From Limnochordia bacterium (GTDB lineage Bacteria > Bacillota > Limnochordia > DTU080), in NCBI GenBank assembly GCA_050951545.1, contig JBMNJG010000003.1, forward strand, positions 64,001 to 128,000: 64,000 nucleotides of DNA. Direction: 5' to 3'. Shown here one piece after another: positions 2,177 through 63,127 of this stretch (positions within the stretch are counted from its first letter, which is position 1; each line of letters starts with the position of its first letter). The translations under genes were made by a program, and so were the position numbers. The notes under the pieces were generated by a model. That model searched no databases. It was not told the DNA's origin and saw only the letters and a list, made by a program, of their open reading frames with translations.

Positions 2177-2237
2177 GGATAGACAACCTTCAGTTGGTCA
2201 TGTTGTGAAGGGCATCCTGTAGAAGGGGGAAGAACAA

Positions 2238-3500: not shown

Positions 3501-3577
3501 ATTGGGGGGTACGCGTGTCGGCGGCCAACGACATGCGCGCACAGCGTAACGCGATTTTCTTGGGAGGCGCAGAAGGC

Positions 3578-4462: not shown

Positions 4463-4530
4463 GCAATGAAAGGGCGGATACAGCCACAGCCATACCCGCC
4501 CTTCCTGCATCGTGGAGACCCCTATGCACC

Positions 4531-9289: not shown

Positions 9290-10960
9290 TTGGCTCGGAT
9301 CGTCATTGTCGGTGGAGTTGCAGGGGGCATGAGTGCTGCAGCGCGCCTGCGTAGGCTCGACGAATCAGCTGAGATCATCGTTTTTGAAAGAGGTCCGTTC
9401 GTCTCGTTCGCCAACTGTGGCCTTCCTTACTATGCCAGCGGGGTCATTCCCGAGCGCGATGAGCTCATCGTTGAGGATGCGCCATCCCTACGGGCCCAGT
9501 TGCTCCTGGACATCCGTACTGAGACAAACGTCGTATCGATCAATCGCACAGCCAAGACGATTGCTGTGGAGGATACCAATAGGCAACGCAGCGAGGAAGC
9601 CTATGACACGTTGATTCTCTCTCCGGGAGCCGCTGCGGTGCGACCACCCATCCCCGGTGTTGATGATAGCCGCATTCACACGATTCGGTCCATCCCGGAT
9701 ATTGATGCCCTGAAAAGCCGCCTCGACACAGGAAAGCTGCGAGAGGCAGTAGTGGTAGGCGGCGGATTCATCGGAGTGGAGATGGCTGACAATCTACTGC
9801 GAGCCAATGTCAAGGTACACCTGGTGGAAATGACCAACCAAGTGCTATCCAACATGCTCGATCCAGATATGGCTGCCTTCGCGCATGCGCACCTGCGCAG
9901 CAAGGGTCTTCATCTTCACTTTGGCTCACCAGTACATGAGTTCGTCGATCACGACGGTCAGCTTGCCGTCGTCTTGAGCAACGGCTCTTACCTGAAGGCC
10001 GATGCAGTGATCCTAGCCATCGGTGTGCGACCCGAAGTGAACCTGGCTGTAGCGGCCGGGTTGGCCTTGGGGCTCCGCGGAGGCATCGCTGTGGACGAGT
10101 ACCTGCGCACTTCAGATCCTCATATCTACGCCATAGGCGATGCCATCGAAGCACGAGATGTTGTGACGGGCTCTCAGACCCTCGTTGCCCTGGCTGGCCC
10201 TGCTAACAAGCAAGGCCGCCTTGTGGCGGACAATATCTATGGCCGCCGTGTCCCCTACAAGGGCACCCAAGGAACAGCGATAGTCGACGCCCTCGGTATG
10301 GTCGCTGCGGGAACAGGAGCCACTTCGGCAGCCTTGAAGCGAGCAGGGCTCCCCCATCTGGCATCCGTCATCCATGCTTACTCCAACGCCGCCTACTTCC
10401 CCGGTGCCACACCTCTGACCATCAAACTGCTTTTCGACCAGAAAGGGCGCATTCTTGGTGCTCAGGTTGTTGGGGAAAAAGGAGTTGACAAGCGAATCGA
10501 TGTTCTCGCCACCGCATTGCGGCTGGGAGCTACGGTCTACGATCTGCAAGAGCTCGAGCTGGCCTATGCACCGCAGTTTGGATCAGCAAAAGACCCCGTA
10601 AACATAGCCGGATATGTAGCAGGCAACATTCTGGCTGGTGATGTGACGACGGTGCAGGCCACACAGGTCCCTGACCTCGAGAACATCGCCACGTTTCTTG
10701 ATGTTCGCGAGCCTGAGGAGCATGCCCGAGGCTCTATCCCAGGGAGCCTGAACATCCCACTGGCCCAGCTCCGAGAACGCCTAAGCGAGATTCCCCGCGG
10801 GAAACCAGTAGTCGTCTACTGCCAGGTTGGACGACGGGCATACATCGCCTGTCGCGCGCTGAGACAGCTTGGCCTTGATGTCGCCAACCTCGCTGGCGGA
10901 TGGCGCTCCTACGCAGCGCTGAAGTCAGAAGAAAGCAGAGCCATGAGCCTAACACACTAG
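9290..10960 (+). CDS. CoA-disulfide reductase with C-terminal rhodanese domain (CoADR-RHD / persulfide reductase type)
   Basis: GGVAGG, SFANCGLPY, GGGFIG, ELAYAPQFGSAKDP, rhodanese YCQVGRR; TTG start after GGGAGGGG. Confidence 0.9.
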   Translation: MARIVIVGGVAGGMSAAARLRRLDESAEIIVFERGPFVSFANCGLPYYASGVIPERDELIVEDAPSLRAQLLLDIRTETNVVSINRTAKTIAVEDTNRQRSEEAYDTLILSPGAAAVRPPIPGVDDSRIHTIRSIPDIDALKSRLDTGKLREAVVVGGGFIGVEMADNLLRANVKVHLVEMTNQVLSNMLDPDMAAFAHAHLRSKGLHLHFGSPVHEFVDHDGQLAVVLSNGSYLKADAVILAIGVRPEVNLAVAAGLALGLRGGIAVDEYLRTSDPHIYAIGDAIEARDVVTGSQTLVALAGPANKQGRLVADNIYGRRVPYKGTQGTAIVDALGMVAAGTGATSAALKRAGLPHLASVIHAYSNAAYFPGATPLTIKLLFDQKGRILGAQVVGEKGVDKRIDVLATALRLGATVYDLQELELAYAPQFGSAKDPVNIAGYVAGNILAGDVTTVQATQVPDLENIATFLDVREPEEHARGSIPGSLNIPLAQLRERLSEIPRGKPVVVYCQVGRRAYIACRALRQLGLDVANLAGGWRSYAALKSEESRAMSLTH

Positions 10961-11086
10961 GACTCATCGAGAAGCGGTATGTGCCTGTTTCGGGCTGCTA
11001 GAGTCTTCCATCCCTCCACCGGGGAGGGATGGAAGACTATGGATCACGAAACACACGCGCTAGTTACTCGCATGTATTCTGGTACC

Positions 11087-13630
11087 TCAAAGCGTGTTGA
11101 TGCCGGAAATACCGAGAAGAAGGATGCTGGCGTCGGTTTCGTCGTTTCCAGAGCAGAGAATACTCGTAATCTCACGCTCGGGATGAGGGTTGACCCACTC
11201 GAAGCCGAGCGCCGTGACATCGCGCCCGTCGCTGGTCTTAGCCTGCAGCAGGGGATCACCCCAATAGGTCGCGATATAACCCTGATGGCGATAGTACTGC
11301 TGTGGCAGAGGATCGCCATACCGTCTGGTGTAGACGCAGATGTTCCCCGCATATTCGATAGGTATATCGACCTGTGAACCGTCTACATATCGCACCGTAT
11401 ACCGACCGACCTCGGTCAGCGGTTTCCATGCAACACGCGGAGCGTTGTTTTCGGTCGCGTGCAGGAAAACGAGCCTTTGGAATGAGGCAGACACGGGAAT
11501 CTCAACGGGTGCGCAGGACAACCTTTGCGCGTAGGTGAAATCGAAAGTGCAATCTTCCAGAACATTTGCAGAGTGCTTGAGAGCTTCTGCTACCGCAGCT
11601 GGCAGCCTTGGAGCAGAAGTGATGGGCAGTGCAACCGCCTCGGATCGCACGGGATGGTCGATCGGCTTGGCGATGCCACGCACTTCGTCGCGCAGACGAG
11701 GCATCCGTTTGGCAATCCATGCGGTATACACCTCGCGGGCGCGTGAGTCGTACTCTTCTGACCAGAGCATCTCAGCCGAATACATCACATCGAATATCTT
11801 TCCTTTTTTGGCGAGCGTATGTTCGTCGAAGCGGCACCAGGTGGAGACCTGTCCTCCGATGATACCCTCTTTGGCGATGCGTTGCTCATATCGCGGATAA
11901 TGGCTTGAATACATGTTCCCCATGATGACCTTATAGCCAAAGGGTAGAATGTTATCTTCCATATCAAGGTCAAAATGAAAATACCAGATGAAATCCAGCA
12001 TCACAATGTCCCGTGGCAGGCGTTCGATGGCCGTGTGGGTCTTATACCGCCGCTCCGTAGGGTGCAGCATGTCGCACCAGATCATCATTTTCAGGCCTTT
12101 TTTGGCCAGATAGTCGTGCATGCGCGTAACATGGAGTGCGTACAAATCAGCATGGTCTTGGTCGCGACAACGAGGACAGAGCCCTATCTGATAGATTTCG
12201 TCGTGCCCCATATGTACGTAACGCTCCGGGCCAACGACCTCCACAATCTCGTCGATGATGTCGTAGATGAGCTCGTAGCTCTTGTCATGCAGAGGGCAAT
12301 AGGAGTGGTGATAGTATGTGCTAGGTGGCTGGTCAGCGCTGCGGGTATCGAGCTTTTTGCTGTTTTCTACGCTTTCTGCCACCTCCGCTATTTCGGGGTG
12401 GGCATAGGTGATGTACTGGACATGCCCGAAGGACTGTACCTCCGGGATCACCTCAAAGCCGAAGCTTTTGCTATACTCTACAAACTCCCGCACCTCTTCT
12501 TTCTCAAGCAAACCCCCACCTGCCACCATCTCACCGTGCGGGAAGGCTGGCTGCGTACCCGCCTTGGCCGCGCGATTGCCACGCTCCCACGCCTCGCTGA
12601 TCTCCGGGTGTCTGTCAAACCGCATCCCACCAGCGAACTCAATGAATAAGGTGTTGTAGCGCATCGGAATCAACACATAGCGGATCAAGCGCCGCGCGAA
12701 AGCCAACTCCTCACGAGGAGGAAGCCCGAAATGGAAGCCACGCACGGGCACGCGGGGCTCGTCATCAATCTCGCAATATGGCAGCGCACCGTTAGAGGCC
12801 AGCTGGAGAGTGCTCTCAACAGCATACAGCAGACCAAGTCTACACGACGCGAACAACTCCACGCCGTCAGAGTTGACGCGGACGCGGTAGCCCTCGGAGG
12901 GGATACTGTCATCCAACCCGATGGAGACAGAGCCCTTCTGGGAAGGGATAACGGGTATGTCGATGCCGAAATACTCTGCAAAACGCTCCCGTAAATACGA
13001 CGCGGCAAATGTCGCATCGGTTGACGATTCGAGTGCTGCAATGGATTCTAGTGCGGCAAGAGGGTAATGGCCAACATAGTACCGGATATCCGCGGGTGTT
13101 GGGTAGATGTCCGGTTCGTCGGAATCTGCACCAATGAGGACCAGGTCTTCTACGACGATGTCTTTAAGGTCGGCCTGAAAACGAACAACAATCACCGCCG
13201 CCCGGACTCCGATGGGAATCGTGAGTTCTCCACTCAACAGTCCGCCGGTCTGTGCGTCATAGCGGCCCACGCAAGAAAGCTCGTCTTCGACAAGAGAGAA
13301 GACTTCAACAGATCCTACAGCGGAACGATCAGCAAGCTTTAGGCAGACCGCTCCGACAAAGACCTCCCTGCCTAGACTGAAGCGGATATCAACACCAGTG
13401 TCCATCAGCGAGCTCCACTTCCAGCCGACGGGGGATCCAGTACCAAGGCTACCACTGCCGAACGGTATTTCGCCCGTATCGGCACCGCCTGAATCAAAGG
13501 CCAGATCGGGTGGAAAAGGGGTAAGTGTTCCCCGATGGAAAAACCTATAGCTCCCTGTGAGATTGGTGCGGTCCATGTTCAATTGGCCGATATACATATC
13601 TGCGTGTCGGTCGATTCGGCGCACGACCAA
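11087..13630 (-). CDS. Glycoside hydrolase family 20 (beta-N-acetylhexosaminidase-like)
   Basis: GH20b domain (EGYRVRV..IDDEPRVPVRGFH), IPEVQSFGH, catalytic HMGHDE; no signal peptide. Confidence 0.82.
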   Translation of the reverse strand: MVVRRIDRHADMYIGQLNMDRTNLTGSYRFFHRGTLTPFPPDLAFDSGGADTGEIPFGSGSLGTGSPVGWKWSSLMDTGVDIRFSLGREVFVGAVCLKLADRSAVGSVEVFSLVEDELSCVGRYDAQTGGLLSGELTIPIGVRAAVIVVRFQADLKDIVVEDLVLIGADSDEPDIYPTPADIRYYVGHYPLAALESIAALESSTDATFAASYLRERFAEYFGIDIPVIPSQKGSVSIGLDDSIPSEGYRVRVNSDGVELFASCRLGLLYAVESTLQLASNGALPYCEIDDEPRVPVRGFHFGLPPREELAFARRLIRYVLIPMRYNTLFIEFAGGMRFDRHPEISEAWERGNRAAKAGTQPAFPHGEMVAGGGLLEKEEVREFVEYSKSFGFEVIPEVQSFGHVQYITYAHPEIAEVAESVENSKKLDTRSADQPPSTYYHHSYCPLHDKSYELIYDIIDEIVEVVGPERYVHMGHDEIYQIGLCPRCRDQDHADLYALHVTRMHDYLAKKGLKMMIWCDMLHPTERRYKTHTAIERLPRDIVMLDFIWYFHFDLDMEDNILPFGYKVIMGNMYSSHYPRYEQRIAKEGIIGGQVSTWCRFDEHTLAKKGKIFDVMYSAEMLWSEEYDSRAREVYTAWIAKRMPRLRDEVRGIAKPIDHPVRSEAVALPITSAPRLPAAVAEALKHSANVLEDCTFDFTYAQRLSCAPVEIPVSASFQRLVFLHATENNAPRVAWKPLTEVGRYTVRYVDGSQVDIPIEYAGNICVYTRRYGDPLPQQYYRHQGYIATYWGDPLLQAKTSDGRDVTALGFEWVNPHPEREITSILCSGNDETDASILLLGISGINTL

Positions 13631-13786
13631 ACCAACCTAATCCTCCCTCATTGTCTAGTGATCATACTTCTCGCCACTTGTGGCGTTCCTATCCATGCCT
13701 CTTTGTTTCCCCTTTCTCCTCGGTTCCCCTGCACTTCCACGCGTTGATAATAGACATGATCACATCGCCAGTCCACCTGCTGTAGA

Positions 13787-26949: not shown

Positions 26950-27039
26950 CCCCGACAGGGTGGCTCTATTCTGGTGATCAAATGGCCTCATTCTCGATTG
27001 ACAAACACACTATACGAACCATACTGAGCAAATAGCACC

Positions 27040-27300
27040 TCGCAAAGGCTCAGCTGTGGCACCGGTTGCCCAGGGGCAACCCTGTGAGCTGCAGAGAAAG
27101 CAAACGTCCCGCACTTGGCGGGACGTCTAAGGGTTTGCCGCCAGCGAGCTACTCTCCCGCGCCTTCAGCTGGCCTTTGCTTCGCAAAGGCTCAGCTGTGG
27201 CACCGGTTGCCCAGGGGCAACCCTGTGAGCTGCAGCAAAAGCAAACGTCCCGCACTTGGCGGGACGTCTAAGGGTTTTGCCGGCAGCGAGCTACTCTCCC
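27040..27300. repeat. Tandem ~119-bp direct repeat (27040-27158, 27181-27300) containing the rrn terminator hairpin and the last ~22 nt of 5S rRNA
   Basis: Copies differ at about 4 positions; each contains ACGTCCCGC-ACTTG-GCGGGACGT. Confidence 0.9.
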
Positions 27301-27396
27301 ACAGGGTTGCCCCTGCAGTACCATCACCGCTGGAGGGCTTAACTGCCGTGTTCGGGATGGGAACGGGTGGGTCCCCTCCGCCATTGCCACCGACAA
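27278..27396 (-). rRNA. rrf: 5S ribosomal RNA
   Basis: CCCATCCCGAACACGGCAGTTAAGC...GATGGTACTG...GGGAGAGTAG on minus strand. Confidence 0.95.
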
Positions 27397-27473
27397 AGTC
27401 TCCAGGTGCTGTGCACCCTCACAACTGCACAGAAGATAAGATGACGATTGCTGCCTGAGAGCTTACTACTTTT

Positions 27474-30458
<2,985 letters not shown>

Positions 30459-30675
30459 GATTAAGCCCGCGTGTGCTCTTTTGAGCCACGCTAGGTTTGT
30501 AAGTCTCCTCAGGCAACTAGGAGTCGCCATGATGGTCGAGGGACCATCAAACGATCTCCATACACACCTCACCGCGTCGATGTCAGTCGCGGCAGGTGTG
30601 CGTATCGTCACCTTTTCTCCTCTGTGCAGTTGTCAAGGTGCATACCAACGTGCCTTTCTGTTGAAAGACCACGTC

Positions 30676-30752
30676 TGGTGGGCTTAGGTGGATTCGAACC
30701 ACCGACCTCACCCTTATCAGGGGTGCGCTCTAGCCACCTGAGCTATAAGCCC
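30676..30752 (-). tRNA. tRNA-Ile(GAT), sole spacer tRNA
   Basis: GGGCTTATAGCTCAGG...CCCTGATAAGGG...GGTTCGAATCC...CCA. Confidence 0.97.
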
Positions 30753-30874
30753 TCAGAAATCGCCCAGAACAGAACAACAGCTTCCGAGAAGCTGTTGTGC
30801 CAGTCCCTGGCAACTAAACAGCGTACATCAGCAAGGGCCGACCTAGGAGTAGCCAAGACTGACCGCCTTGGCAT

Positions 30875-32394
<1,520 letters not shown>

Positions 32395-32643
32395 CTGGTA
32401 TCATTACGGTGCTAGGCACCGGAATAATCTTGGATGCTTACCTGGCTTCTTCGAAATTACTCGTAGAAGCTCGCACCTCTCAGAGTTGCTACTCCGAGAA
32501 GTGTTCATAGGTTTCTCAAGCTCGCAACCAATCCATTACGATCGGCGCTCGCTTTCCCTTGCTTCTTTTTGCACGCTGTTTAGTTGTCAAGGACCGACTC
32601 TCTTTGCGTTGGGTCCAGGTTAGTGGCCCACGCAGCAAGGTTA

Positions 32644-32761
32644 ATCATATACTCTTTTCCATCCTGAGTCAAGCATCATTTCGACCCGCCAGCCGTTTTC
32701 GTATAGAGACTTGCTTGGACGGACAAAACGAAGTATACCACCGCCTTGTACCCGTCGTCAA
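32644..32761 (-). promoter_or_regulatory. Tandem sigmaA promoters P1/P2 of the rRNA operon
   Basis: TTGACG-N18-TATACT with TG extension (32732-32761) and TTGACT-N17-TATGAT (32644-32672). Confidence 0.75.
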
Positions 32762-52752: not shown

Positions 52753-52754
52753 GC

Positions 52755-52800
52755 TGGTAGGGAAGAGCGGACTCGAACCGCTGACCTCCACGATGTCAAC
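52755..52800 (-). repeat. att site: displaced 3' half of tRNA-Val(GAC)
   Basis: 46 bp matching 63051-63096 with 5 mismatches; identical 18-bp core GACCTCCACGATGTCAAC. Confidence 0.93.
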
Positions 52801-52923
52801 TATATTCAGCTCAGAATTGCCTCTCTGCGCCCGTGTTCGCTTGCGTCCGAATGTGGCCTGTATGCTGGCCTTTGGTTATTCTCGCCGACTTCGTGTTGTT
52901 CGCTGGTGTCGCCCCGTTTCCGG

Positions 52924-52948
52924 TCTATTGGCAGTACTGTGGCAGTAC
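52924..52948. repeat. Putative integrase arm-type site (TGGCAGTAC x2, 11-bp period); other copies at 57335-57359 and 62974-62993
   Basis: TCTATTGGCAGTACTGTGGCAGTAC identical at 52924 and 57335; TGGCAGTACAATGGCAGTAC at 62974. Confidence 0.75.
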
Positions 52949-53516
52949 AAAATAACGCTTTGTCATAGGTGCGCCCGCTACCGATACCTGTTGCCGCGCG
53001 GTGAACAGTGGCGCGGCCTACTTTGTTTTCCGCGGCAACCGCGTCAATGGTTTTGGGCAAGTTATCACTTTGAGAACTTGCCGCCGCCCGCCCGCTCCCG
53101 CTCGTGCCGCCGCTCGGGCGCCCGCTACCGCCGTCCGCGCGGTGACGTGGGGCCTTGTTTGAACGTCGATGCGCATCCGTCCAGCTTGACTTCTCACTCC
53201 CGCGGTCCCCGCCGTGACTTTGCCGTCGTTCGCGCCGCCGGGTATTCCTTCCCGTCCGAACCGGTGACTGTTGCAGGTGTAGACATTTGTCTACACCTTC
53301 GGCTGTCGGTCTGCTCGCACCGTGTCATGTGGCTGAACCCCCAACCGCCCCGCAATGCGCCGCAGGCTCCAGCCTTGTTGGCAAACAAATGGCCTTCATA
53401 GACGCCGTTTTGAGCCACGCAAGAAGGGCGCAGGTGTAAAGAGTGCCCCACGCCGTCTACTCGCCTAGAAAGGGCCTTCCTGTGCGCCTGGCAGGGTTCT
53501 CGCTCGCCAGACAGGG

Positions 53517-53544
53517 GAAGCCCCAAGGTTTCCCCTGGGGCTTC
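53517..53544 (-). terminator. Hairpin ending the element's minus-strand late operon
   Basis: GAAGCCCCA..TGGGGCTTC about 30 bp after stop at 53573. Confidence 0.55.
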
Positions 53545-53572
53545 GCTACTCCGTCCGTTTTGTGAGCTACAC

Positions 53573-54405
53573 TCAGGCGCCTTCTGCTAGGTGCTTACCG
53601 AACTCCGCCGCGAATTCATCAAGCAAGGGGTTCGTCACCGGGCCGTCGTCCGTTACACCCTCCGCCCACCATGTGCTTGCATCTGCTGCTGCGCCCTTCA
53701 CCGCGTTCTGTAGCAATAGACGGTCAAAGCCGAGCTTGTCATCTGTGTTCTTGTGCAGCTCTTCCTCGTATTGCTCCGCTCTGGAAACTAGGTCTGCGTA
53801 CTTTGGGAAGGTCTCAGCGAACGCCGCTTCACTCAACTGCTCCAGCTCCGCCCGCTTCGTCGTGATGGTCCGCAAGGTACGGTTTTGGGCGTCGATTCGT
53901 TGCTCTTGCGTTTCAGGGAAGAAGCTGGGGCCTTCTGTCGATTGTGTCAGCTCCTCGATTCGCCTTAAGGCCTTGTCCATGTTGCGAATCCAAGCATAGC
54001 GCTGCGCCTTGTTGGTTGTGTATGTTGTCCCTTCCTTGAATGCCGCTACCACGTCATCGGGCTTGCGCGCTAGGTTAATCTTTGCCTCAACTTCCCGGTC
54101 AAAGATTAGAATCTCGTTGCCGAACTGCGAAGGGGAAACCAGGTCACTAGCAGACTGCCGGAAGTCTCGCGCCACCGCTTCGCAGTAGTTTTGAGCTTCA
54201 CGCGCTAGGGCTACACTGTCGCCATATGCCTTCTCTAGCCTTTGGGCCGCCTGGCGTAGCGCCTCGAACTGGTCGTAGCGCTTCAAGTGACATATCAGAG
54301 TAGTACCGCCAGCGCGGATTGGCAAACACCTGCGCCACGTCCTCCTTAAACTCGTCGATAGCCTGTTGGATAAGCGCCCGCCGTTTCTACGCTCCACAAC
54401 TCCAT
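53573..54405 (-). CDS. Hypothetical helical/coiled-coil protein; 5' end apparently frameshifted
   Basis: ORF 53573..54397; plausible N-terminus MELWSVE/KRRALIQQAIDEFKEDVAQVF lies in other frames. Confidence 0.55.
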
Positions 54406-54674
54406 TGCCACCACTCCGCTCCTTGTTGGTTTAGCGCCGAGACCGGGTTACCGCCAGTCCCGCCGGTCCCTTGCTTGTTTGGTGCCCACAAGCCGCCGCG
54501 GTCGCGCAGGGAACCGTCGATAACCTCATCAATGTTCGCCACGCCGCCCTTGTCGTCAAGCTGAACCTCGCCTTTGTGCAGGGCAACGATACTCTGGGGA
54601 GACTTCGCCCCGTGCTCTGCCGCCTTCGCCACCAATGCCGCCTTAACGATTGCGTCCTTCTGCCACTGCTCCAA
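54387..54674 (-). CDS. Phage scaffolding-protein-like small protein
   Basis: TTG after AAGGAGGTG; IVKAALVAKAAEHGAKSP...VQLDDKGGVANIDEVI...GTGGTGGNP resembles the C-terminal half of siphophage scaffold proteins. Confidence 0.5.
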   Translation of the reverse strand: MEQWQKDAIVKAALVAKAAEHGAKSPQSIVALHKGEVQLDDKGGVANIDEVIDGSLRDRGGLWAPNKQGTGGTGGNPVSALNQQGAEWWQWSCGA

Positions 54675-54687
54675 CCTCGCCACCTCC

Positions 54688-56172
54688 TTAGCGCTCATCA
54701 CCTGGAACGTGCTGAACACTGAACTCGTAGACATACACACCGTCCCGCCGCGCCCGTTTGCGCATGGTCTCCATCTGGTAAAGCAAGCTCGACACTTGGG
54801 AGTCTTCGTCACTCCAAGCAGGAGCAAGGTTAATCCTGCCCGTCTCTAGGGTGCCGACCTTGTGGGCTTGCTCCTCCGCCGCTAGGGCCGCCAGGGCCAC
54901 CGCCGTAACGTGGTCGTCGTGCCCGCCGGAAGGATGGTCAAGCCGCCAACTGTTGCGGTTTTGCACTACTTGCAGGCGCCGCAGCTCTTCCATCAGCTCT
55001 TCATGTGGATAGCACTTCAACAAGCCGTCCCGAATGAGTTGAAGCAGGTGGCTGTCGAGCTTTTGCCGGAAAGCCGTGGTAAAGCGCTGGTCTACGCATC
55101 GCAGACCACTTGCCTGCAAGCGCTCCACCAAGCCTGCCGCTTGCCAGAAGTCACAGGAAACTACCAACCTCTTGAACGCGCGATTCACTAGCAGGAGATC
55201 GTCCTCAACGTCCGAAAGAAGCACCCGCTCTTCTCGCGAACCTTGCCACGTCCTCAGACTGTCAACCACCGTCTTTTGCCCTTCGCGGTGAACAATTGCT
55301 CGCACCGTTCTGTCATGCACTAACCCCAGATCGACACCAACGAAATACGCAACGCCATGCTTGCCCTCCACCTGCCGGGTTAGAGTGTTGTCGAACACCC
55401 CCTGCACCTCGTCTTCTGTGAGCACAGAACCAGATGAGCTGACCCATTCGTTCAGGTGTAACCGCCGGAAAACCTCAGCAGGTAATAGGCGCCGCTGCTC
55501 CTCCAACCATTCCTCTTTGATCCAACTGGCACACTGGCCGCGGCTCTTGAAGTACCAGCCTGGCGTGTTCTGTGCCAAGTGGTACAGCTCTTCGGACCAA
55601 TGCCCAATCACTCCGCAGGTTCCGATAGTCACGAACCGGCAACCTGGAACCTTGCCTGTTGCTGAGAAAAGCGCATCGAATAGGCGCCTGTCGGGCCATT
55701 CGGCAAGCTCATCGCAGCATATCCAGGTGGGTAGAAGCCCGTAGGCCGAAGGTGCGTCCGACGATAGCACCGTTAGTCTGGCGCCCGTTGCTGGAACCGC
55801 AATGCCGTCCTTAGTTATCTCTGCGTTCATCGCCAGGAGCTGCGTCCGCCGAATGTAGCCTGTAGCCAGCTCATGCAGCAGACTAGCCTGGTCCTTGTCC
55901 ACCGCTGCTGCATAAAGACGCCCGCCCTTGGGGCCTAAAAATAGCTCCGCCACACACTCCGCCGCCAGGTCCGAGGTCTTACTGTGGCCGCGAGGTCGCC
56001 AAATGGAAGCATTCGGCAAGTCCTGCCGCCTGTCGAGCGCCGCCAAGTCCTCCGCTTGCCAGGGTTCCAGGGAGGCGCCGTAAGAGCGCCCGTCAGGCAA
56101 GACTAGCACCTCCCGCCGGAATGTCATTCTGTCATCCTTCCAGCGCTCTAGCGCCGCCGTTAGCCGCTCCAT
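54688..56172 (-). CDS. Terminase large subunit
   Basis: Adenine-binding LEPWQ, Walker A-like PRGHSKT, AAVDKDQA, Walker B ICCDE, FRRLHLNEW, nuclease VGVDLG and HDDHV. Confidence 0.85.
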   Translation of the reverse strand: MERLTAALERWKDDRMTFRREVLVLPDGRSYGASLEPWQAEDLAALDRRQDLPNASIWRPRGHSKTSDLAAECVAELFLGPKGGRLYAAAVDKDQASLLHELATGYIRRTQLLAMNAEITKDGIAVPATGARLTVLSSDAPSAYGLLPTWICCDELAEWPDRRLFDALFSATGKVPGCRFVTIGTCGVIGHWSEELYHLAQNTPGWYFKSRGQCASWIKEEWLEEQRRLLPAEVFRRLHLNEWVSSSGSVLTEDEVQGVFDNTLTRQVEGKHGVAYFVGVDLGLVHDRTVRAIVHREGQKTVVDSLRTWQGSREERVLLSDVEDDLLLVNRAFKRLVVSCDFWQAAGLVERLQASGLRCVDQRFTTAFRQKLDSHLLQLIRDGLLKCYPHEELMEELRRLQVVQNRNSWRLDHPSGGHDDHVTAVALAALAAEEQAHKVGTLETGRINLAPAWSDEDSQVSSLLYQMETMRKRARRDGVYVYEFSVQHVPGDER

Positions 56173-56377
56173 TACCGCCACCTCCCAACTCCCGCAAACA
56201 CTCTCGCAGACAGGCAATTAACTGTCCTTCGCCTTCTTGCGCTACACTCTGGGCAACCATCCGCGCCACAGGATTGGTTGTCGCTTCTAGGCCTTTCAGA
56301 GTATCAATGAGTACGCCGATAACATCGGTCATGTCCACCTGCACCGTCTCACCCGTTCTCAGTCTGAGCGAAGCCAT
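56132..56377 (-). CDS. Hypothetical protein
   Basis: MASLRLRTGETVQ..., RBS GAGGTGG, coupled to terL. Confidence 0.55.
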   Translation of the reverse strand: MASLRLRTGETVQVDMTDVIGVLIDTLKGLEATTNPVARMVAQSVAQEGEGQLIACLRECLRELGGGGNGAANGGARALEG

Positions 56378-56481
56378 TGCCGCCACCTCGCCTTAAGATA
56401 CGCTTGCACATGACGCCGCTTCAGGCGCCACACAAGCCCCAAGCTCCCGCCGATGATTCCAGCCACCACCTGCACTGCCAT
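56359..56481 (-). CDS. 40-aa hydrophobic/basic peptide
   Basis: Not in ORF track; AGGAGGTG RBS; MAVQVVAGIIGGSLGLVWRLKRRHVQAYLKARWRQWLRSD. Confidence 0.5.
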   Translation of the reverse strand: MAVQVVAGIIGGSLGLVWRLKRRHVQAYLKARWRQWLRSD

Positions 56482-56493
56482 GCTCAGCACCTC

Positions 56494-56625
56494 CTACGCT
56501 GTCTTGCCCTTCGTCTTGCCGGGTACCATGCGCTTGCCGCACTTGGTGCAGATCGGCGCCGTCTTGCCGATGTACACCGTCACCGCCCGCTTACACTTGG
56601 GGCATGAGTACGTCTTGGCAGCCAT
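56494..56625 (-). CDS. 43-aa zinc-ribbon protein
   Basis: Not in ORF track; AAGGAG RBS; MAAKTYSCPKCKRAVTVYIGKTAPICTKCGKRMVPGKTKGKTA. Confidence 0.6.
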   Translation of the reverse strand: MAAKTYSCPKCKRAVTVYIGKTAPICTKCGKRMVPGKTKGKTA

Positions 56626-56641
56626 GTGCTCGCTCCTTCCG

Positions 56642-56824
56642 CTAGGCCGATTCAACTAGCCTGCTCCTGTGCTGGTGCCCACAAGACAAGCAGCGAAGCT
56701 CCACAAAGGTAATGCCTGCAAGCTGTGGCGCCACACACTGTTTGCGCCGCTCCCGACAAGACTTAACGCCACACTCCGGACATCTAAGCCAAGTGTCAGT
56801 AATCTCGAATGTGCGTTTACGCAT
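56642..56824 (-). CDS. Small zinc-ribbon protein
   Basis: CPEC...CLSC; start MRKRTF overlaps terS stop after AAGGAGG. Confidence 0.55.
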   Translation of the reverse strand: MRKRTFEITDTWLRCPECGVKSCRERRKQCVAPQLAGITFVELRCLSCGHQHRSRLVESA

Positions 56825-57314
56825 CGCGTTCCGCCTCCTTTCGACGTGTCTCCAGCTCAGCCAAGGCCTCAGCAAGTCCTGCCGCTCGCCCCTGTGTGAG
56901 TCCTAGCTTCGCCCGTGATGCCGGGCTTAGTCCTAGACGGTCAAGGAGCTTGGCTGCCGTCTCAATCGCTTTGAGCTGCATCTCCACCACAGGACGCAGC
57001 TTCCCCTGATCGTTGACAAGTCCGTGCTGCGCTATATACTCCTCAGCTTGCATCACCTTGCGAATCGCTACCGCCGCCAGCTCCAAGGCAACCTCGTCCG
57101 CAGGTCGTAGGTGTGAGATGTTATCACCTGCAAGCAAGTCCTTGATCTGTTGCGACACTGCCTGCACCTCGGGCTGTCCCGGGTTAATAACCGTCACCCC
57201 GTGCTGGTCTCGTTTCTCTCTAAACGGTTTCAGGTTGGCCAGCGCCCGCGCCTTGCCTTCTGGCGTCTTGGGTCCGCCCTTCCCCTTGCCTTGTTTCTTG
57301 CCTAGTTGTGTCAT
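56817..57314 (-). CDS. Terminase small subunit (P27-like)
   Basis: GPKTPEGKARA N-terminal motif; GKLRPVV...LGLSPASRAKL; RBS GGAGGT. Confidence 0.78.
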   Translation of the reverse strand: MTQLGKKQGKGKGGPKTPEGKARALANLKPFREKRDQHGVTVINPGQPEVQAVSQQIKDLLAGDNISHLRPADEVALELAAVAIRKVMQAEEYIAQHGLVNDQGKLRPVVEMQLKAIETAAKLLDRLGLSPASRAKLGLTQGRAAGLAEALAELETRRKEAERDA

Positions 57315-57512
57315 GTCAGCACCTCCGATGCTCTTCTATTGGCAGTACTGTGGCAGTACGCCGTCCGTACACCGCTATTTGATGGGCTTTTTTCGCGACG
57401 TCTTAGGTGACTACTATGTGTTCGTACGCTTGTTCCCCCATGGGGAAGGCCGCCAAAACGTGCCCGCCTGCCAGCTAAGGACCTGTAGGCGCCGTCACGT
57501 TCTACTCGTGTT

Positions 57513-58055
57513 CTAGCTGCCGGGTTCTGCTCGATACGCAACGTTGTCAATCCTTTCTAATCCGTGCCCGTCGGTGAACAGTGCCCGCCCAAGGGCCGTG
57601 CAGAACCAGGTGGTATCGGGCGTGCCACCATCCACCTTCGTCACCATGACACCTGCCACAAGCAGCTTCGCCTTGATGACACTGTGTAGCTCGCCCGCTG
57701 GCAGATTCGCATCAATGACTAGCATGACTTCATCCATGGCGAAGGCTACTGTGCCATTGTCCAGGTGCTGCCGGGCCGCCGCCACGTCCCTGCATAGCGC
57801 CACCTGCTCGCCTAGTGCCGCCGAATCTAGTAACGCCCAACCCCTCGCATGGAGTTGCCGGGTAGCTTCGGCAACGTCCTCCGCTGTCGGGCCTCGAAGC
57901 AACTCCATCAATGCAGGCTTGTGGCGCCGTAGTGCTTCCCGCAGCTCGTCCGTCACCGCGCCCTGCGGGTCAGCTACCACGCGCAGCTTGTCGCCGTTTA
58001 CCGATAGCTCGATGCCACGCCGTCTACACTCCATCAGCAACTGCATGGGTGTCAT
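57513..58055 (-). CDS. TubC-N-like domain protein
   Basis: LLMECRRRGIELSVNGDKLRV...LREALRRHKPALMELL; ATGA overlap with helicase gene. Confidence 0.65.
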   Translation of the reverse strand: MTPMQLLMECRRRGIELSVNGDKLRVVADPQGAVTDELREALRRHKPALMELLRGPTAEDVAEATRQLHARGWALLDSAALGEQVALCRDVAAARQHLDNGTVAFAMDEVMLVIDANLPAGELHSVIKAKLLVAGVMVTKVDGGTPDTTWFCTALGRALFTDGHGLERIDNVAYRAEPGS

Positions 58056-59800
58056 AGCTCGAACACCTCCGAAGCCTTATTCCCCTCCGCGGCAGATAGT
58101 GTGTGTTTTCTTGCGTCAGATGTGTCAGTTGCGTCAGACATACCTTGTAAACCGCGCAACGAAGGGCTTTTCCTGTCTGACGATGTATCTGACGCAAGTA
58201 TGTTCGATGATGGGTTTGCGTCAGACGTTGCGTCAGACGCAGAAACCCCGTTGTTATCGCCTTTAGGGGCCACATCTGACGCATCTGACGTGTCTGACGC
58301 TACTTTGTGGGTACTATCTATCCTCACAAGTCGGGTCCCCTTTTTGTCGCCGGCGCGCCTGTCCAGGTCAACATTAATGCCAACCTGTCGCAAAGCCGTA
58401 GAGCTTCGCCGCAACCGGTTAGACAGACTTCGGGCCGAACCGGGCCACGTTTTGGCGTTTCGCATCTTATCGCTCGCGTGGTCCTCCAACTCATCCAATA
58501 GCTCCGTCATGGTGCCCTCGAAGCCGTCCGGTTTGTGCTTCAAAAGCTCACACACCGTGAATGCTACTGCGTCACTTTCGATGCCAAGATCTACGGCCTC
58601 GGCGCGGTTCTCGGCATACGCCTTAAGCGCTGTGCCCTCGGGCCACCCGAAAGCCTCTTCTGCTGCCGTTGCCCACACCGCAAAGTCAGCCATGCGCGGC
58701 TTGCGCGGCAGGTGGACAGAATCCACTCGCCGCAGCGCGGTCGATACGCCATCAAGCAACGCACCAAACACCCGCGGGCGAACAAGCTCCCAATCTCGCC
58801 AGAAAGTTGCCTCGGTTTTCCTCTCAGCATCGGGTATGGGTGGCAGAACCAAATTTAGCGAACGGTCTGCTAAGTCATGACGGGTTGCAATGTCGTCAAT
58901 GCCGTTAAGAATCACGGGCCGCTGGTAGTCGAACAGGGCTTCTTCGCTGTCTGTGTACAGCTCACGCGTTGCGAATCCGCCGCCCGTTGCCACGCGACAG
59001 ATAGCATCCGACAACCACACAGGAACACCCGACAAGTTGTCCAAACAGACCAACCAAGCGTTACTAGCATGAATCGCCAAATCCCGTTCGTTGCGCGGCG
59101 CCGTTCTAAGGGGTACGCTCGATGGGTCAATCAACGAAACCAATACCCGCGCCGTTATGCTTTTTCCCGAACCCTGTTCGCCTAGCAGAATCCATACAGC
59201 GTAGGGGCCGGTAGGTCGGTAGCACGAAACTAGCCCAGACACCACCAATACCCTTTGTCCTTCGTCGGGTATGTTGACGAAAGGCCACAGCTCATCGATG
59301 CTCCCGCCCGCCACAGGGTGAGGAAGGGGCGCCATGCCCCGCCCGCGCCGAAAGCGCACAGGAGGGTTAGATATGACTCGCCAACCTGTAGCGGTCACCT
59401 CTACCGCCTCCCAAGCATCGTTAGCCAAGTCAATATATATGCACCCCTGCGCCTCGCCCACGCGGATAAAGACGTTGTGCTGTTCGCCTTTGTAGCAAGC
59501 AATCGCAGTAATGGTGTTGCGCGCATCGGTCATCGCCTGCGAAGACGGGCCGTTCTCGTGCTGTTCGTAATATGTCGCCTCTAGCCATCGCCTAAAGCCG
59601 CTAGACATCACGGGCCAATGTTCCCGATGCTCATCACAAGTTACAGTCGCCCAAGGCTCGAAGTCCTGCGTGTGCCATAGCTCCGCTGTCTTGGCAATCT
59701 CAATCAGCAGTTCCCTTTGAGTAGGCTTGCCCTTCGCGGATTCGTCGTCTTGCTGCTCCTTCGCTTTGGCCAATGCATCCAGTCCGTCCAGCTCTTGCAT
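58052..59800 (-). CDS. Replication ATPase/helicase of phage-satellite type
   Basis: Walker A GEQGSGKS, LDNLS, RELYTDSEE, DLADR; repetitive SDASD tail. Confidence 0.75.
   Translation of the reverse strand: MQELDGLDALAKAKEQQDDESAKGKPTQRELLIEIAKTAELWHTQDFEPWATVTCDEHREHWPVMSSGFRRWLEATYYEQHENGPSSQAMTDARNTITAIACYKGEQHNVFIRVGEAQGCIYIDLANDAWEAVEVTATGWRVISNPPVRFRRGRGMAPLPHPVAGGSIDELWPFVNIPDEGQRVLVVSGLVSCYRPTGPYAVWILLGEQGSGKSITARVLVSLIDPSSVPLRTAPRNERDLAIHASNAWLVCLDNLSGVPVWLSDAICRVATGGGFATRELYTDSEEALFDYQRPVILNGIDDIATRHDLADRSLNLVLPPIPDAERKTEATFWRDWELVRPRVFGALLDGVSTALRRVDSVHLPRKPRMADFAVWATAAEEAFGWPEGTALKAYAENRAEAVDLGIESDAVAFTVCELLKHKPDGFEGTMTELLDELEDHASDKMRNAKTWPGSARSLSNRLRRSSTALRQVGINVDLDRRAGDKKGTRLVRIDSTHKVASDTSDASDVAPKGDNNGVSASDATSDANPSSNILASDTSSDRKSPSLRGLQGMSDATDTSDARKHTLSAAEGNKASEVFEL
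58115..58298. repeat. Dyad-symmetric array of 10 GTCAG(A) iterons (putative origin)
   Basis: 3 forward, 2 reverse, 2 forward, 3 reverse copies, mirrored around 58206/58207. Confidence 0.8.
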
Positions 59801-60297
59801 CACGCCACCCCCTCTGCATGGCGTTTGGCGACCCAATTGACGATGCCAAGCACCTCATATGCAGGAACAGGTGGCTCACATCGCATCCATGCCCACGCAA
59901 CCACCAATGCCGCCGTAACGTATGGGTCGACACCTCGGGCCAGTAGACTTCCGCTCAGAGATCGAATCGTCTTGTAACGGTCATCGCCCGTAGCTCCTAG
60001 AATGACATGCCGCCTCCAACCGTCAAGAGGGGAATGCAACTCCAGCGCTAGGGGAACAGGTTGCCGTCTTGGTTCATCGGGTTCACCCGCCGCTGTGATC
60101 GCCGCCGTGATAAGCTGCTCCAGCTCTTTATCGCCTAGAAGAAGGCCATGCTGTTGCTCTAGCTCAGTGAGAATTTCGCGCAAAATAGGCCGCGGTACGA
60201 AATACCGGGCCAGGCATTCAGCCACATGGATAAGGCGCTGCTTACCGTCCTTCCGGGCCGTCTCGCTAGAGCCGGTCTCCTCGCGCAGCAGGTCCAT
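59800..60297 (-). CDS. Primase C-terminal (PriCT-1-like) domain protein
   Basis: SLSGSLLARG...RCEPPVPAYEVLGIV; no polymerase domain seen. Confidence 0.6.
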   Translation of the reverse strand: MDLLREETGSSETARKDGKQRLIHVAECLARYFVPRPILREILTELEQQHGLLLGDKELEQLITAAITAAGEPDEPRRQPVPLALELHSPLDGWRRHVILGATGDDRYKTIRSLSGSLLARGVDPYVTAALVVAWAWMRCEPPVPAYEVLGIVNWVAKRHAEGVA

Positions 60298-60477
60298 GAC
60301 TACCCGTTCAGCTACGGGTTCAGGTGCGCCGTTGTCGCAGCATGGCCGCGAATAAGCGCACATTCGCCTTCGCCTGTGGTAAACTGGTGGTGTGTCGCTG
60401 TCTCCACATGAAGGCACCTCCTGGCGCCACCGTTACCGCGGTGGCGCTCTGTCGTTGTTGTCGTTGTCAACAATGCA

Positions 60478-60690
60478 CTAACCATCACACTGCACCAACC
60501 CTCTGGCAGCCAACTCCACCAAGGCTTTCCTTGGGACTCGCCGGGAATTGCCGATCTTGACGTAAACCAACTCACCACTAGACATAAGCTGGTAAACCCT
60601 GGTCCGCCCAAACCCCAGCCACTCGCACGCCTCGTTCACCGTCATCAGTCCGTCTGACAAAAGAGCTTCCGTTCCTTTCTGCGCCTTCAT
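60478..60690 (-). CDS. Excisionase / HTH_17 DNA-binding protein
   Basis: LMTVNEACEWLGFGRTRVYQLMSSGEL..VKIGNSRRVP; RBS AGGAGGGG. Confidence 0.85.
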   Translation of the reverse strand: MKAQKGTEALLSDGLMTVNEACEWLGFGRTRVYQLMSSGELVYVKIGNSRRVPRKALVELAARGLVQCDG

Positions 60691-60818
60691 TATGGATAAC
60701 CCCCTCCTGTTACGTGTTGGTATGCGTTCACCATAACACACATGGACAAATTAGGCAACATGTGTTACTGTGTTTTTAGCGTAACGGCAACACCATTCAG
60801 CGATAGGAGAGGATTGCC

Positions 60819-61770
60819 ATGCCGAATGAACCTGTGTTCTTTGCCTGGAGTGTGCCTACGAGCGGCTACAAGTGGACCGACGCCAAGACGGTGGAAGGGA
60901 GAACCGGGCCGTTTTCTGATAGCACACCGGAATGTGACCGGAAAAGTCAAACGTTACCAGCCACTGCAACTGCACTCAGCGCTTTTTCGGTCGTTTGCGG
61001 ACATCACACCAGACAGAGGACGACATCCTGCTCATTTGCTAATGAGTACGGAAGGCTTACTGCACCGGGCGAGATGCTTATAGTGCCATCGGAAAGGAGC
61101 CCCAGAGAAGGCACCCTCGATGCCGGGGAACCGCTCTCGTTGTGGGTGTCTGAAATTGCTGATATGAACCAAGCGCTTACCTTGTGGGATATGGCGCAGG
61201 ACCGCGATGTTACTGGCCTTAGCGATTTCATTCACTGGTCAGGGAACAGTGTGCATTACGATAGTGGGCCAGGGCTAGAACGAACCACCAGGACCGTTGC
61301 ACACCTTGACGAGGAACCCCGCCTGAGTCGGTATTCTGCTGCATGGTGATCTTGTTACCCCCGCCCTCTTCCAGGTCCAACACGTTGTAAACCAGCACCT
61401 TGAAGGGCGACTATCGCCAAAGGTACTTTGGGACACAGACTATACGCACTTGAACCTGCACTTCATGCCGGAATCGCTCATAGGCGCCCTTTGGCTGCAG
61501 TTCGCCCAAGCCATTGACGGCAACAAGACTTACCGCCGTTGTGACGAATGCCGGGCATGGTTTGAGCTTTCGCCGGAGGTAGCGCGCACAACCAAACGCT
61601 TCTGCTCAAATGCCTGTAGGGTAAAGGCCTACCGCAACCGTAAAGCTACCGCCCGCCAACTCCATAGCAAAGGGGTTCGGATTGAAGAAATAGCTACCCG
61701 CCTTGACTCCGATCCTGAAACGGTTGCAGGTTGGGTATCCGACACTGAAGGTAACACAAAGGAGGAATGA
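60819..61770 (+). CDS. CGNR-type zinc-finger regulator with C-terminal HTH; frameshifted near 60914, 61020 and 61330
   Basis: Joined frames give LFRSFA..FANEYG..GEPLSLW..PESLIGALWLQF..CDEC..FCSNACRVKAYR. Confidence 0.65.
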
Positions 61771-61774
61771 CGGC

Positions 61775-62959
61775 ATGGCAGCCAAGAAGGGGCAAGGTTC
61801 TGTGAGATTCCGGGCTGACAAGGGCCTTTGGTGTGGCCAAGTCAGTCTAGGGTACCGCACAGACCAAGCGGAAAGCGCACGGTTCGTAAGACGTTTTACG
61901 GCAAGACTCAGCAGGAAGTACTCGATGCCATGGCGCGCCTGCAGGGCGACATTCTAGCAGGCAAGCCGATCCCCAACGACAGGCTTACCGTGAAGCAGCA
62001 CTTTGAAGACTGGTTGCGCTCCAAGAAAGCTGGCGTCGCCAGGAGCACCTATACGCAGTACGAAGGGCATGTTCAGACTCACATTATCCCTTCCTTGGGA
62101 CGTATCAAACTGAAGGACTTGGATTACCGCCGCATAAACGCCTTCTACGATGAGCTACACAACCGGGAAGACAAACTCGCCCCGCGCACCATCTACGACA
62201 TTGGCGCCATCCTACGCTCAGGACTTGAAGACGCAGTGCGCAAAGGGCTTGTACCCTCCAATCAAGGGAAACTGGCTGCAAAGCTCAGTAGGGGAGACAA
62301 GGAAGCTCGCTTTCTCAACCCCCAGGAGCTGGCCAGCTTCCTCGAAGCCTGCAAGGGCGAACGTCTAGAGAATGCATTCATTCTAGCCATCAATACCGGT
62401 ATGCGTCCCGGCGAATGGCTTGGCCTGTCGTGGGATGCCGTCGATCTGCAACAGGGAAAGCTCACTGTCAGGCAAGCGCTTCACGAAGTCTCGGGGAAGG
62501 TATATCTGGGCGACGTGAAAACGAAGGCCAGCAGGAGAACCATCTCTTTGCCGAAGGACGCCGTTCAAGCATTGCGCCGACAACGCAAGCATCAGACTCG
62601 AAGAGCAGCTTGCCTCTGGTGGCAGATGGGTCAATGAAGAGAACCTAGTCTTCACCGATACCCAAGGCGGTCTCCTACGCCGCACCAACGTATCTAAACG
62701 TGATATGAAGCGCATCGTCCGCCGTGCCGATCTCGAAGACGCAACACTGCACACCTTCCGCCATACTCACGCCAGCCTGCTGATCGCCGCAGGTGTCGAC
62801 ATCAAGACAATCTCCCGACGCCTGGGCCATGAGAATATCACGATCACGCTTCAGACCTACGGCCACTTGATGCCGGGCCAAGACGAACGGGCCGCCGACG
62901 TGATGGATACCATTCTCGCCGGGCTGCCATCTGTACCTCCCATGGCCTCCCGCCTCTAG
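61775..62959 (+). CDS. Tyrosine integrase (Tn916/ICEBs1-like); frameshifts near 61860 and 62597
   Basis: Arm-binding N-terminus (GQGSVRFR..W..RKTFYGKT), TGMRPGE, KT, HTFRH, LGH, TYGH. Confidence 0.9.
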
Positions 62960-63010
62960 CTACCAAAACCTAATGGCAGTACAATGGCAGTACAGAAGCA
63001 ACAAATGCTG

Positions 63011-63035
63011 AAAGCCCTACCGCTTGGTAGGGCTT
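63011..63035 (-). terminator. Element-supplied terminator for the reconstituted tRNA
   Basis: AAGCCCTACC-GCTT-GGTAGGGCTT. Confidence 0.7.
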
Positions 63036-63050
63036 CTAGCTGCTGTTTTC

Positions 63051-63127
63051 TGGTGGGGAAGCACGGACTCGAACCGTGGACCTCCACGATGTCAACGTGG
63101 CGATCTAACCAACTGATCTACTTCCCC
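63051..63127 (-). tRNA. tRNA-Val(GAC), integration target
   Basis: GGGGAAG..CCACG TTGACAT CGTGG..CACGG TTCGAGT CCGTG CTTCCCC ACCA. Confidence 0.95.

Follow-up and report, generated by a model that had tools for sequence, protein, structure and literature searches.

The DNA analyzed here, referred to as the window, is a 64,000-nt stretch of contig JBMNJG010000003.1 (assembly GCA_050951545.1; positions 64,001 to 128,000 of the forward strand). Towards its right end lies a 10.3-kb island between attachment (att) sites, which carries genes for integration, genes with a putative role in replication and genes for both subunits of a phage terminase, the small (TerS) and the large (TerL), and in which no capsid or portal gene was recognized. 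The island is delimited by a 47-nt direct repeat at 52754-52800 and 63050-63096, the two copies being identical at 42 positions (89%) and spaced 10,296 bp from start to start, which confirms the boundaries and the size that an earlier note on this DNA had proposed for an att-to-att element. The right copy corresponds to the 3' part, from the anticodon loop to the CCA end, of a tRNA-Val(gac) gene on the minus strand (63051-63127; ARAGORN; Rfam tRNA, 69.8 bits), the 3' 47 nt of which form the repeat, so that tRNA and proximal att together occupy 63050..63127; the distal, unstranded repeat (52754..52800) is a displaced copy of the same tRNA part. Contigs assembled in the Logan collection from 3 sequencing runs break off precisely at 52800, where the distal repeat ends. 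In base composition, the island shows no clear difference from its flanks.

Most of the genes are arranged on the minus strand, in the order excisionase-type helix-turn-helix (HTH) protein, 205-aa protein, 594-aa ATPase, TubC_N protein, TerS, four small open reading frames (ORFs), TerL, scaffold-like protein and a helical orphan protein, whereas the plus strand carries a 176-aa ORF, a 106-aa protein and the integrase, the latter directly adjoining the tRNA-Val gene and the proximal att. The minus-strand genes overlap or abut, with a 198-bp gap between the TubC_N gene and terS, and about 770 bp without a convincing gene separate the end of the operon from the distal att. A GC-rich hairpin of 12 bp (53517..53544, minus strand) starts 28 nt past the last stop codon; the RNA fold of 53470-53580 on the minus strand has an energy of -53.6 kcal/mol (z -3.85), a stability reached by none of 200 shuffles. 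The picture of a tight operon ending in a terminator, drawn in the earlier note, is thus borne out with respect to gene coupling and the strong hairpin, but the hairpin has no U-tract.

All 18 ORFs of the island were scanned against Pfam and PHROGs, with hits taken at E<=0.01, and an NCBIfam scan was also made. The terS gene (56817..57314, minus strand) encodes a protein of the P27 or Terminase_4 type, which matches PF05119 above the cut-off of that family (E 2e-11) and phrog_83 (E 4.9e-12), as well as TIGR01558 below its cut-off (E 6.3e-8). Between terS and terL, the ORF list gives four small ORFs of 84, 43, 53 and 77 aa (56132..56875, minus strand), among which the 53-aa product has a zinc ribbon according to weak Pfam matches and the 77-aa product according to a manual reading of its cysteine pairs. 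TerL is full-length (494 aa; 54688..56172, minus strand), matches PF03354 TerL_ATPase (E 9.3e-8) and phrog_9 (E 1.3e-28), and keeps every invariant column in alignments of 32 and 14 family members, which we take to include the P-loop lysine, the Walker-B acidic pair and the C-terminal acidic residues. The succession of terS, four tiny ORFs and terL had been read correctly before any database was consulted. Next to terL lies a gene for a small protein of about 100-115 aa (54387..54734, minus strand) with a sub-threshold match to PF06810 Phage_scaffold (E 3.6e-5). It has one related cluster only, P0098, found on a contig of 10,354 bp; this size fits a break at both att ends (52754-63108) and is also near that of a circular form.

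Among the 18 ORFs, neither Pfam nor PHROGs yielded a family match for a capsid, portal, prohead protease or head-tail adaptor or connector, and the tail and lysis modules of a complete temperate prophage were likewise missing from the 10.3-kb island in these scans. The one sizeable candidate is the orphan at the end of the operon (53573..54405, minus strand, with its ATG start at 54405), which is 276 aa long in intact relatives and has 7 relatives among 1.84 billion representative sequences. Its intact form, P0091, was modelled by AlphaFold2 from 5 sequences (predicted local distance difference test score, pLDDT, 88.1; predicted TM score, pTM, 0.68) as twelve helices and no strand. Foldseek comparison of the model with PDB and BFVD, which had been set beforehand as a test, gave no match at E<=0.001, and no HK97 capsid or portal fold; a wide VIA search returned generic helical bundles only (best Z 9.8), and the ESM Atlas gave no usable match. 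In hhalign, the orphan family aligned to the capsid proteins of related phages with a probability of 0.25% and to a 280-aa family encoded 3' of TerL in four related loci with a probability of 0.18%; it was absent from JGI metagenome contigs, IMG/VR, the other 94 genomes of the class and 400 sampled genomes of the phylum. HK97-fold capsid proteins and portals contain beta structure, and the orphan, as modelled, is neither. Because it consists of helices only and none of the remaining unassigned ORFs exceeds 205 aa, no ORF is left for a capsid or a portal, in agreement with what the earlier note had maintained. Its suggestion of a head-remodelling factor fared less well, given that the scaffold match is sub-threshold and the orphan has no known fold relative.

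To place the island among related elements, we turned to its TerL, for which the protein collection contains 90 relatives, those nearest to it (72% identity) on short contigs. A single-sequence search of species-genome contigs and viral contigs with TerL found no relative; the alignment of closer TerLs used as query retrieved 34 metagenome loci, and a later scan of species genomes added 182 further relatives, the nearest of which (41-52% identity) belong to metagenome-assembled genomes (MAGs) of Nitrospiria, Gemmatimonadales and Rokubacteria. Within the class, a relative occurs in 1 of 94 other genomes (G074, 46% identity), and none was found in a 400-genome sample of the phylum. TerL and the orphan are absent from both sister species of the genus; the gene on the left flank is present at 71% identity in the sister species G002 and G003, and the compared stretches hold no tRNA gene.

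The nearest relatives sit in compact islands of 10-15 kb at tRNA genes, together with an integrase and a primase or helicase. In the Chloroflexi relative G074 (locus L078), a 14.5-kb island bounded by a 52-nt repeat of tRNA-Met encodes a primase zinc-finger protein, an ATPase homologous to that of the window, a RemA-like protein (6829-7254), TerS, a small XkdF-type protease of 135 aa (9589-9996), TerL, a sigma factor (12789-13727) and an integrase, the RemA-like protein, the protease and the sigma factor lying near TerL, and no capsid or portal. Locus L083 is a 13.3-kb island with a perfect 48-nt repeat of tRNA-Val(gac) and genes for a Prim-Pol protein, TerL and an integrase; it also carries, at 905-5452 and 11414-12034, genes for PIN_12, Hypoth_Ymh and SHOCT-domain proteins, likely cargo of the defence type. 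About 12.8 kb at a tRNA-Arg gene, with three copies of the repeat, make up L082, which encodes an AAA_25 helicase, TerL and an integrase. L087 combines TerS, TerL and two HTH_17 genes with an integrase at tRNA-Thr, L081 has an HTH_17 gene, a Prim-Pol/PriCT_1/AAA_25 protein and TerL, and L084 pairs TerL with a serine recombinase. Neither a capsid nor a portal was found by Pfam in 74 ORFs of 13 metagenome loci or by PHROGs in 108 ORFs of 15 loci; the latter scan gave one weak head-protease match and one tail-protein match 7.6 kb away on the opposite strand, and a Kelch-repeat ORF of L010 matched a PHROGs 'virion structural protein' weakly (E 6e-4). Custom capsid and portal hidden Markov models found no match in 24 loci. 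Among more distant TerLs from IMG/VR (27-44% identity), by contrast, a capsid or portal gene lies at most 6.5 kb downstream in 24 of 29 loci.

The same division emerges from a TerL tree, which is a quick IQ-TREE run, rooted at the midpoint and with support given by the Shimodaira-Hasegawa-like approximate likelihood ratio test (SH-aLRT) only. One clade of 25 rows (SH-aLRT 96) unites the window, G074, three protein-database relatives and all metagenome loci. The genomic context is known for 22 of these rows: eight are islands that have an integrase or recombinase and/or att repeats (att repeats bound 4 on both sides), and for 13 rows no capsid or portal is present in the available, often short, sequence. 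Of the 24 loci adjacent to a capsid or portal, 22 belong to the sister group, the other main TerL group (support 99). Since the nearest TerLs form one clade of compact, capsid-less tRNA islands, the element of the window is no isolated deletion product of a prophage: its reduced architecture has been conserved within one TerL lineage. The homologous loci, which by the earlier note might have proved to be full prophages or capsid-forming islands, are instead compact tRNA islands lacking capsid and portal, and their TerLs form one clade.

Several observations were made on other TerL relatives. A conserved protein of about 280 aa without a family match is encoded 3' of TerL in L088 (2678-3532), L090 (5801-6667), L091 (3371-4441) and L092 (4703-5545); judging by its residue make-up it is helical, and in L092 a weak protease-like ORF precedes it. 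A Rokubacteria MAG (L117, 9857-11985) has its TerL relative broken into three ORFs, with host-type genes around them, apparently a decayed copy. Six Planctomycetota loci (L125, L137, L144, L152, L163 and L171) have a TerL homologue (30-36% identity) at about 10001-11400, preceded, in this order, by a ParB_N protein (not found in L137 and L125), an ABC-type ATPase and a protein of about 160-175 aa; this cassette stands among ordinary host genes without capsid, portal or integrase and looks like a domesticated terminase cassette. In IMG/VR loci L004-L008, L011, L014 and L017-L019, TerL is followed by a protein of 450-510 aa with a Phage_capsid domain only in its C-terminal part and a long N-terminal extension, then by a gene for about 170 aa and, where the contig reaches it, by a portal, with MuF in five; the capsid-before-portal order is unusual.

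The remaining genes of the island belong, in part tentatively, to integration, regulation and replication. The tyrosine integrase (61775..62959, plus strand) matches Phage_int_SAM_3 and Phage_integrase in two pieces and lies in three frames in this assembly; the earlier label int thus holds as regards family and position beside tRNA-Val, but not as an intact gene. The excisionase or AlpA-like HTH protein (60478..60741, minus strand) matches PF12728 HTH_17 (E 3.8e-12) and, above its cut-off, TIGR01764 'excise' (E 5.6e-11), in line with its earlier reading as xis; no match to the AlpA family model is listed for it. The 594-aa protein (58052..59836, minus strand), earlier called a helicase, has a P-loop and structural look-alikes but no Pfam match, and shares 47% identity with the G074 island's ATPase. 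Its ESM Atlas model has as structural neighbours (TM 0.83 by query) clusters that carry a fused Toprim, PriCT_2 or RepB_primase domain, and this makes a primase-helicase type of replication ATPase a reasonable lead for it. Beside it is encoded a conserved helical protein of 205 aa (59800..60417, minus strand), for which a PriCT domain had been proposed; no Pfam, PHROGs or NCBIfam match backs that label. It has 10 relatives (68-100% identity, 180-226 aa), its family was not found in IMG/VR, and its model, of low confidence (pLDDT 64), gave generic helical fold neighbours (best Z 7.2), with a weak row for primase RepB' (Z 6.1) tied with unrelated chains. Sequence queries of the PDB gave nothing meaningful for the ATPase, the 205-aa protein or the scaffold-like one. 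The TubC_N-type domain recognized earlier is well founded: it forms the N-terminus of a 180-aa protein (57513..58055, minus strand; PF18563, E 2.7e-13). On the plus strand, the 106-aa protein (61450..61770) is a candidate regulator with a C-terminal HTH, a weak match to Pfam Terminase_5 (E 9e-4), weak PHROGs matches and a zinc ribbon by manual reading of cysteine pairs; the CGNR family once suggested for it does not reach E 0.01 in Pfam. The 176-aa ORF (60819..61349, plus strand) has no Pfam, PHROGs or NCBIfam match, and its function is unassigned; its frame is uncertain, with the Logan contigs differing from the assembly by a 1-nt indel at 60901.

All six exact copies of the 9-mer TGGCAGTAC in the window fall within the element, where they form three plus-strand pairs with a spacing of 11 bp. 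The first (52929..52948) is located about 130 bp inside the distal att, the second (57340..57359) 26-45 bp upstream of the terS start codon and the third (62974..62993) 57 bp from the tRNA-proximal att core. After excision, the att-side pairs would lie on either side of the attP core, in the manner of arm-type sites, and the pair upstream of terS suggests that the same DNA-binding protein, be it the integrase, the excisionase-like HTH protein or the zinc-ribbon/HTH protein, may also act there, at the packaging operon. The site at the first pair shares 25 of 25 nt with that at 57335-57359. Two elements in tandem, a reading offered by this 25-nt repeat recurring 4.4 kb apart, were rejected, there being no third att core, and so was a sigma-54-like reading of the pairs, all three of which point away from genes. 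Elsewhere in the window, at 27000-32700, short ORFs around a tRNA-Ile gene (30676-30752) break up the long host genes.

Three genes of the island are out of frame in this assembly, which the earlier note had not noticed. The integrase is shifted near 61860 and near 62595, the orphan has two frameshifts relative to its intact, 99%-identical relative P0091 (a genome search gives a two-piece match), and the 205-aa gene has an N-terminus that is shifted relative to intact relatives. We aligned Logan contigs of 4 runs from 4 studies to the region. The extra base at 62595 is missing from the contigs of all four runs; at 54387, each run has a contig without the extra base, which in run X5 accounts for only 2.9 of a depth of 10.7; 3 runs are without the extra bases at 60398 and 60407, and 2 without that at 60336. 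Island and contigs differ mostly by single-base insertions, substitutions being few (a 661-nt contig within the island shows 4 gaps but 0 substitutions), the host flanks align without gaps (on the left, 1,301 nt without a difference), and intact alleles of the integrase and the orphan are present in 4 of 4 public metagenome runs compared. Because the indels come without substitutions and intact alleles occur in four metagenomes, the single-base insertions look like consensus errors in the assembly rather than decay. These errors would be local to the island; strain mixture or DNA modification as their cause are guesses.

What kind of element is this? Because integration genes, putative replication genes and both terminase subunits are present but no capsid or portal gene is, a phage parasite is the most likely answer, and we consider it rather probable that the island is an integrative phage satellite that has a complete terminase of its own and takes portal, capsid, tail and lysis from a helper. 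This interpretation builds on direct observations: how the island is put together, that it lacks capsid and portal genes, that its architecture is conserved, that the TerLs form a clade, and whether sister species have the island. Several results weigh against it. If the frameshifts in the integrase, the orphan and the 205-aa gene were real, this copy would be dead. In one of the 22 clade rows with known context, L002, the gene beside terL encodes a Mu-type portal that is fused to MuF, and many clade members are on short contigs with flanks only partly seen. Given that TerL relatives are apparently domesticated in Planctomycetota, a TerL gene alone is no proof of packaging. The scaffold-like protein scores 24.2 bits against a PF06810 cut-off of 35, and the match covers the C-terminal half of the profile, so that the scaffold-like label of the earlier note corresponds to a match below threshold. 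No Logan contig of the 4 runs joins across the island as an empty site or an attP circle, and the attP junction for which the earlier note had advised looking was thus not seen in them; in run X5, the element is covered and the host flanks are not, and a missing junction there is not evidence. Neither the element nor its searched genes were found in IMG/VR. Finally, the host assembly (93.9% complete) contains no match to Phage_capsid, Phage_portal, Phage_portal_2 or Terminase_6N, the TerL of the island being its sole TerL_ATPase match, so that these families revealed no resident helper, and a Portal_Mu search of it was made without a working control; matching phages may have Mu-type portals, as hinted by L002.

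Some of the same results bear on other explanations. The broken frames, the gene-poor stretch of about 770 bp before the distal att, the fragmented TerL among host genes in Rokubacteria and the portal kept beside TerL in L002 would all suit a decaying prophage remnant, in which an internal deletion took portal, capsid, tail and lysis genes and left integrase, excisionase, replication and terminase genes by chance. Yet four independently integrated, att-bounded elements (at tRNA-Val twice, tRNA-Met and tRNA-Arg) have the same reduced content, their TerLs are monophyletic and keep all invariant residues, and the operon is tightly coupled with a hairpin at its end; the intact alleles in all four metagenomes and the indels with few substitutions, moreover, point to consensus error. 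We thus regard such decay as decidedly unlikely. A different role for the terminase, as a decoy motor by which the DNA packaging of an invader is blocked or cut, would make the island mainly an anti-phage device, which does not travel in particles and spreads otherwise or only vertically. A sequence-specific TerS, a replication module and an integrase with its excisionase, as the island keeps them, are what a packaged satellite needs and would be superfluous for pure defence, and in known satellites interference goes together with transfer of the satellite itself, so that this alternative overlaps with the satellite interpretation rather than replacing it; the defence-like PIN_12, Hypoth_Ymh and SHOCT cargo of L083, the fixed ParB_N and ABC-ATPase cassettes of Planctomycetota without a mobility gene and the missing attP junction speak in its favour, and we judge it unlikely but not far-fetched. 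Very improbable, in our view, is a minimal autonomous virus, or an element akin to capsid-forming satellites, with a capsid and portal too diverged to be recognized: the 176-aa, 205-aa and 276-aa proteins and the four small ORFs are indeed without an assigned family, but the largest of them, the orphan, is modelled as helices only and its profile gives no alignment to capsid proteins from related phages, the other unassigned ORFs are at most 205 aa long, and the 10.3 kb are fully accounted for.

The life cycle of such a satellite, its helper phage and any remodelling of the helper's head are what we infer from the gene content. The element would rest in the 3' end of tRNA-Val until, upon growth of a helper, integrase and excisionase excise it and its own ATPase module replicates it. 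The operon running from terS through the small zinc-ribbon ORFs and terL to the scaffold-like and orphan genes would then be switched on, with the TGGCAGTAC pair upstream of terS as a candidate operator. TerS would select the packaging site of the element itself, and its TerL would dock on the portal of procapsids made by the helper and fill them with element DNA, in competition with the helper terminase. Possible tasks of the scaffold-like protein and the helical orphan are to adjust how the helper assembles its heads or to block its packaging.

Classical PICIs (phage-inducible chromosomal islands) are described, in the relevant passages of PMC10085698, as carrying an integrase, a regulator, a primase-replicase, TerS and sometimes a capsid-morphogenesis gene; according to a passage of PMC13612085, they lack TerL, the large terminase of the helper being used. 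The island resembles the classical AlpA-type or Gram-negative PICIs (the 'PICI' core of SatelliteFinder) outlined in PMC10085698 in its size of about 10 kb, a site-specific tyrosine integrase near att, a small HTH gene of the excisionase or possibly AlpA-like type, a putative replication module of the primase type, a TerS of its own and the lack of tail and lysis genes, a likeness by gene content; unlike them, it carries a full-length TerL. Capsid-forming PICIs (cf-PICIs), as presented in parts of PMC10085698 and PMC10690885, add to TerL a capsid, portal, protease and connectors, and the island shares with them TerS and TerL, an integrase and, putatively, a regulator and a primase, but not the capsid, portal, prohead protease or connector, for which it has no matches. 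Nor did Pfam or PHROGs find, among the 18 ORFs, a match to the Sid, Psu or Delta-type genes of P4-like satellites. PICMIs (phage-inducible chromosomal minimalist islands; excerpts of PMC10803314) and marine VEIMEs (virion-encapsidated integrative mobile elements; excerpts of PMC9618062) are likewise small, integrative and capsid-less, are presumed to be packaged in helper capsids, as concatemers, and in part have TerS. For VEIMEs, the same excerpts name TerS as the packaging gene and count the large terminase subunit among the presumed helper genes, whereas the island has TerL. VEIMEs and tycheposons carry TerS or a capsid gene (parts of PMC9618062 and 10.1101/2020.12.28.424599), and EPIPs carry TerS, adaptors and a tape measure (part of PMC12822802). 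Full-text literature searches, covering main texts, turned up no account of satellites that lack a capsid but carry both subunits of the terminase.

A further parallel concerns the gene after terL. The capsid-size factor CpmB of Staphylococcus aureus pathogenicity islands mimics the C-terminus of the helper scaffold. The scaffold-like protein of the island is also small and helical, resembles only the C-terminal half of a scaffolding family and is encoded just after the packaging genes; unlike in CpmB, the similarity is a sub-threshold sequence match, and the neighbouring 276-aa orphan has no counterpart.

More broadly, it is possible, if slightly less than evenly balanced, that compact 'terminase-only' satellites constitute an old monophyletic lineage spread over several phyla (Chloroflexota here, and Nitrospiria, Gemmatimonadales and other MAGs elsewhere), which bring a whole TerS and TerL motor to dock on the helper portal and no capsid part of their own, with the orphan and the scaffold mimic acting in this case as new helper-interference factors. 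The earlier note had envisaged an intermediate satellite class; a distinct class with TerS and TerL and without a capsid is what the comparison retains, but a position between PICIs and cf-PICIs is unsupported. Satellites are currently split into those that use the large terminase of the helper (PICIs, P4, PICI-like elements (PLEs), PICMIs and VEIMEs) and those that build their own capsid (cf-PICIs and Streptomyces satellites). If our interpretation is correct, the island would represent a third strategy beside TerS-only PICIs and cf-PICIs, and it would follow that a foreign TerL can be matched to the portal of a helper, adding a terminase-portal layer to helper specificity and interference. 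The combination of integrase, primase or helicase, terS and terL within 10-15 kb at a tRNA gene, without capsid or portal, would provide a search signature for satellite finders. At least half of the sampled 31-mers of the island are present in 20 runs of 14 studies, which are metagenomes of anaerobic digesters, bioreactors and sludge; satellites would also be extended to the Chloroflexota of anaerobic digesters, where the biology of phages and their hosts is little known.

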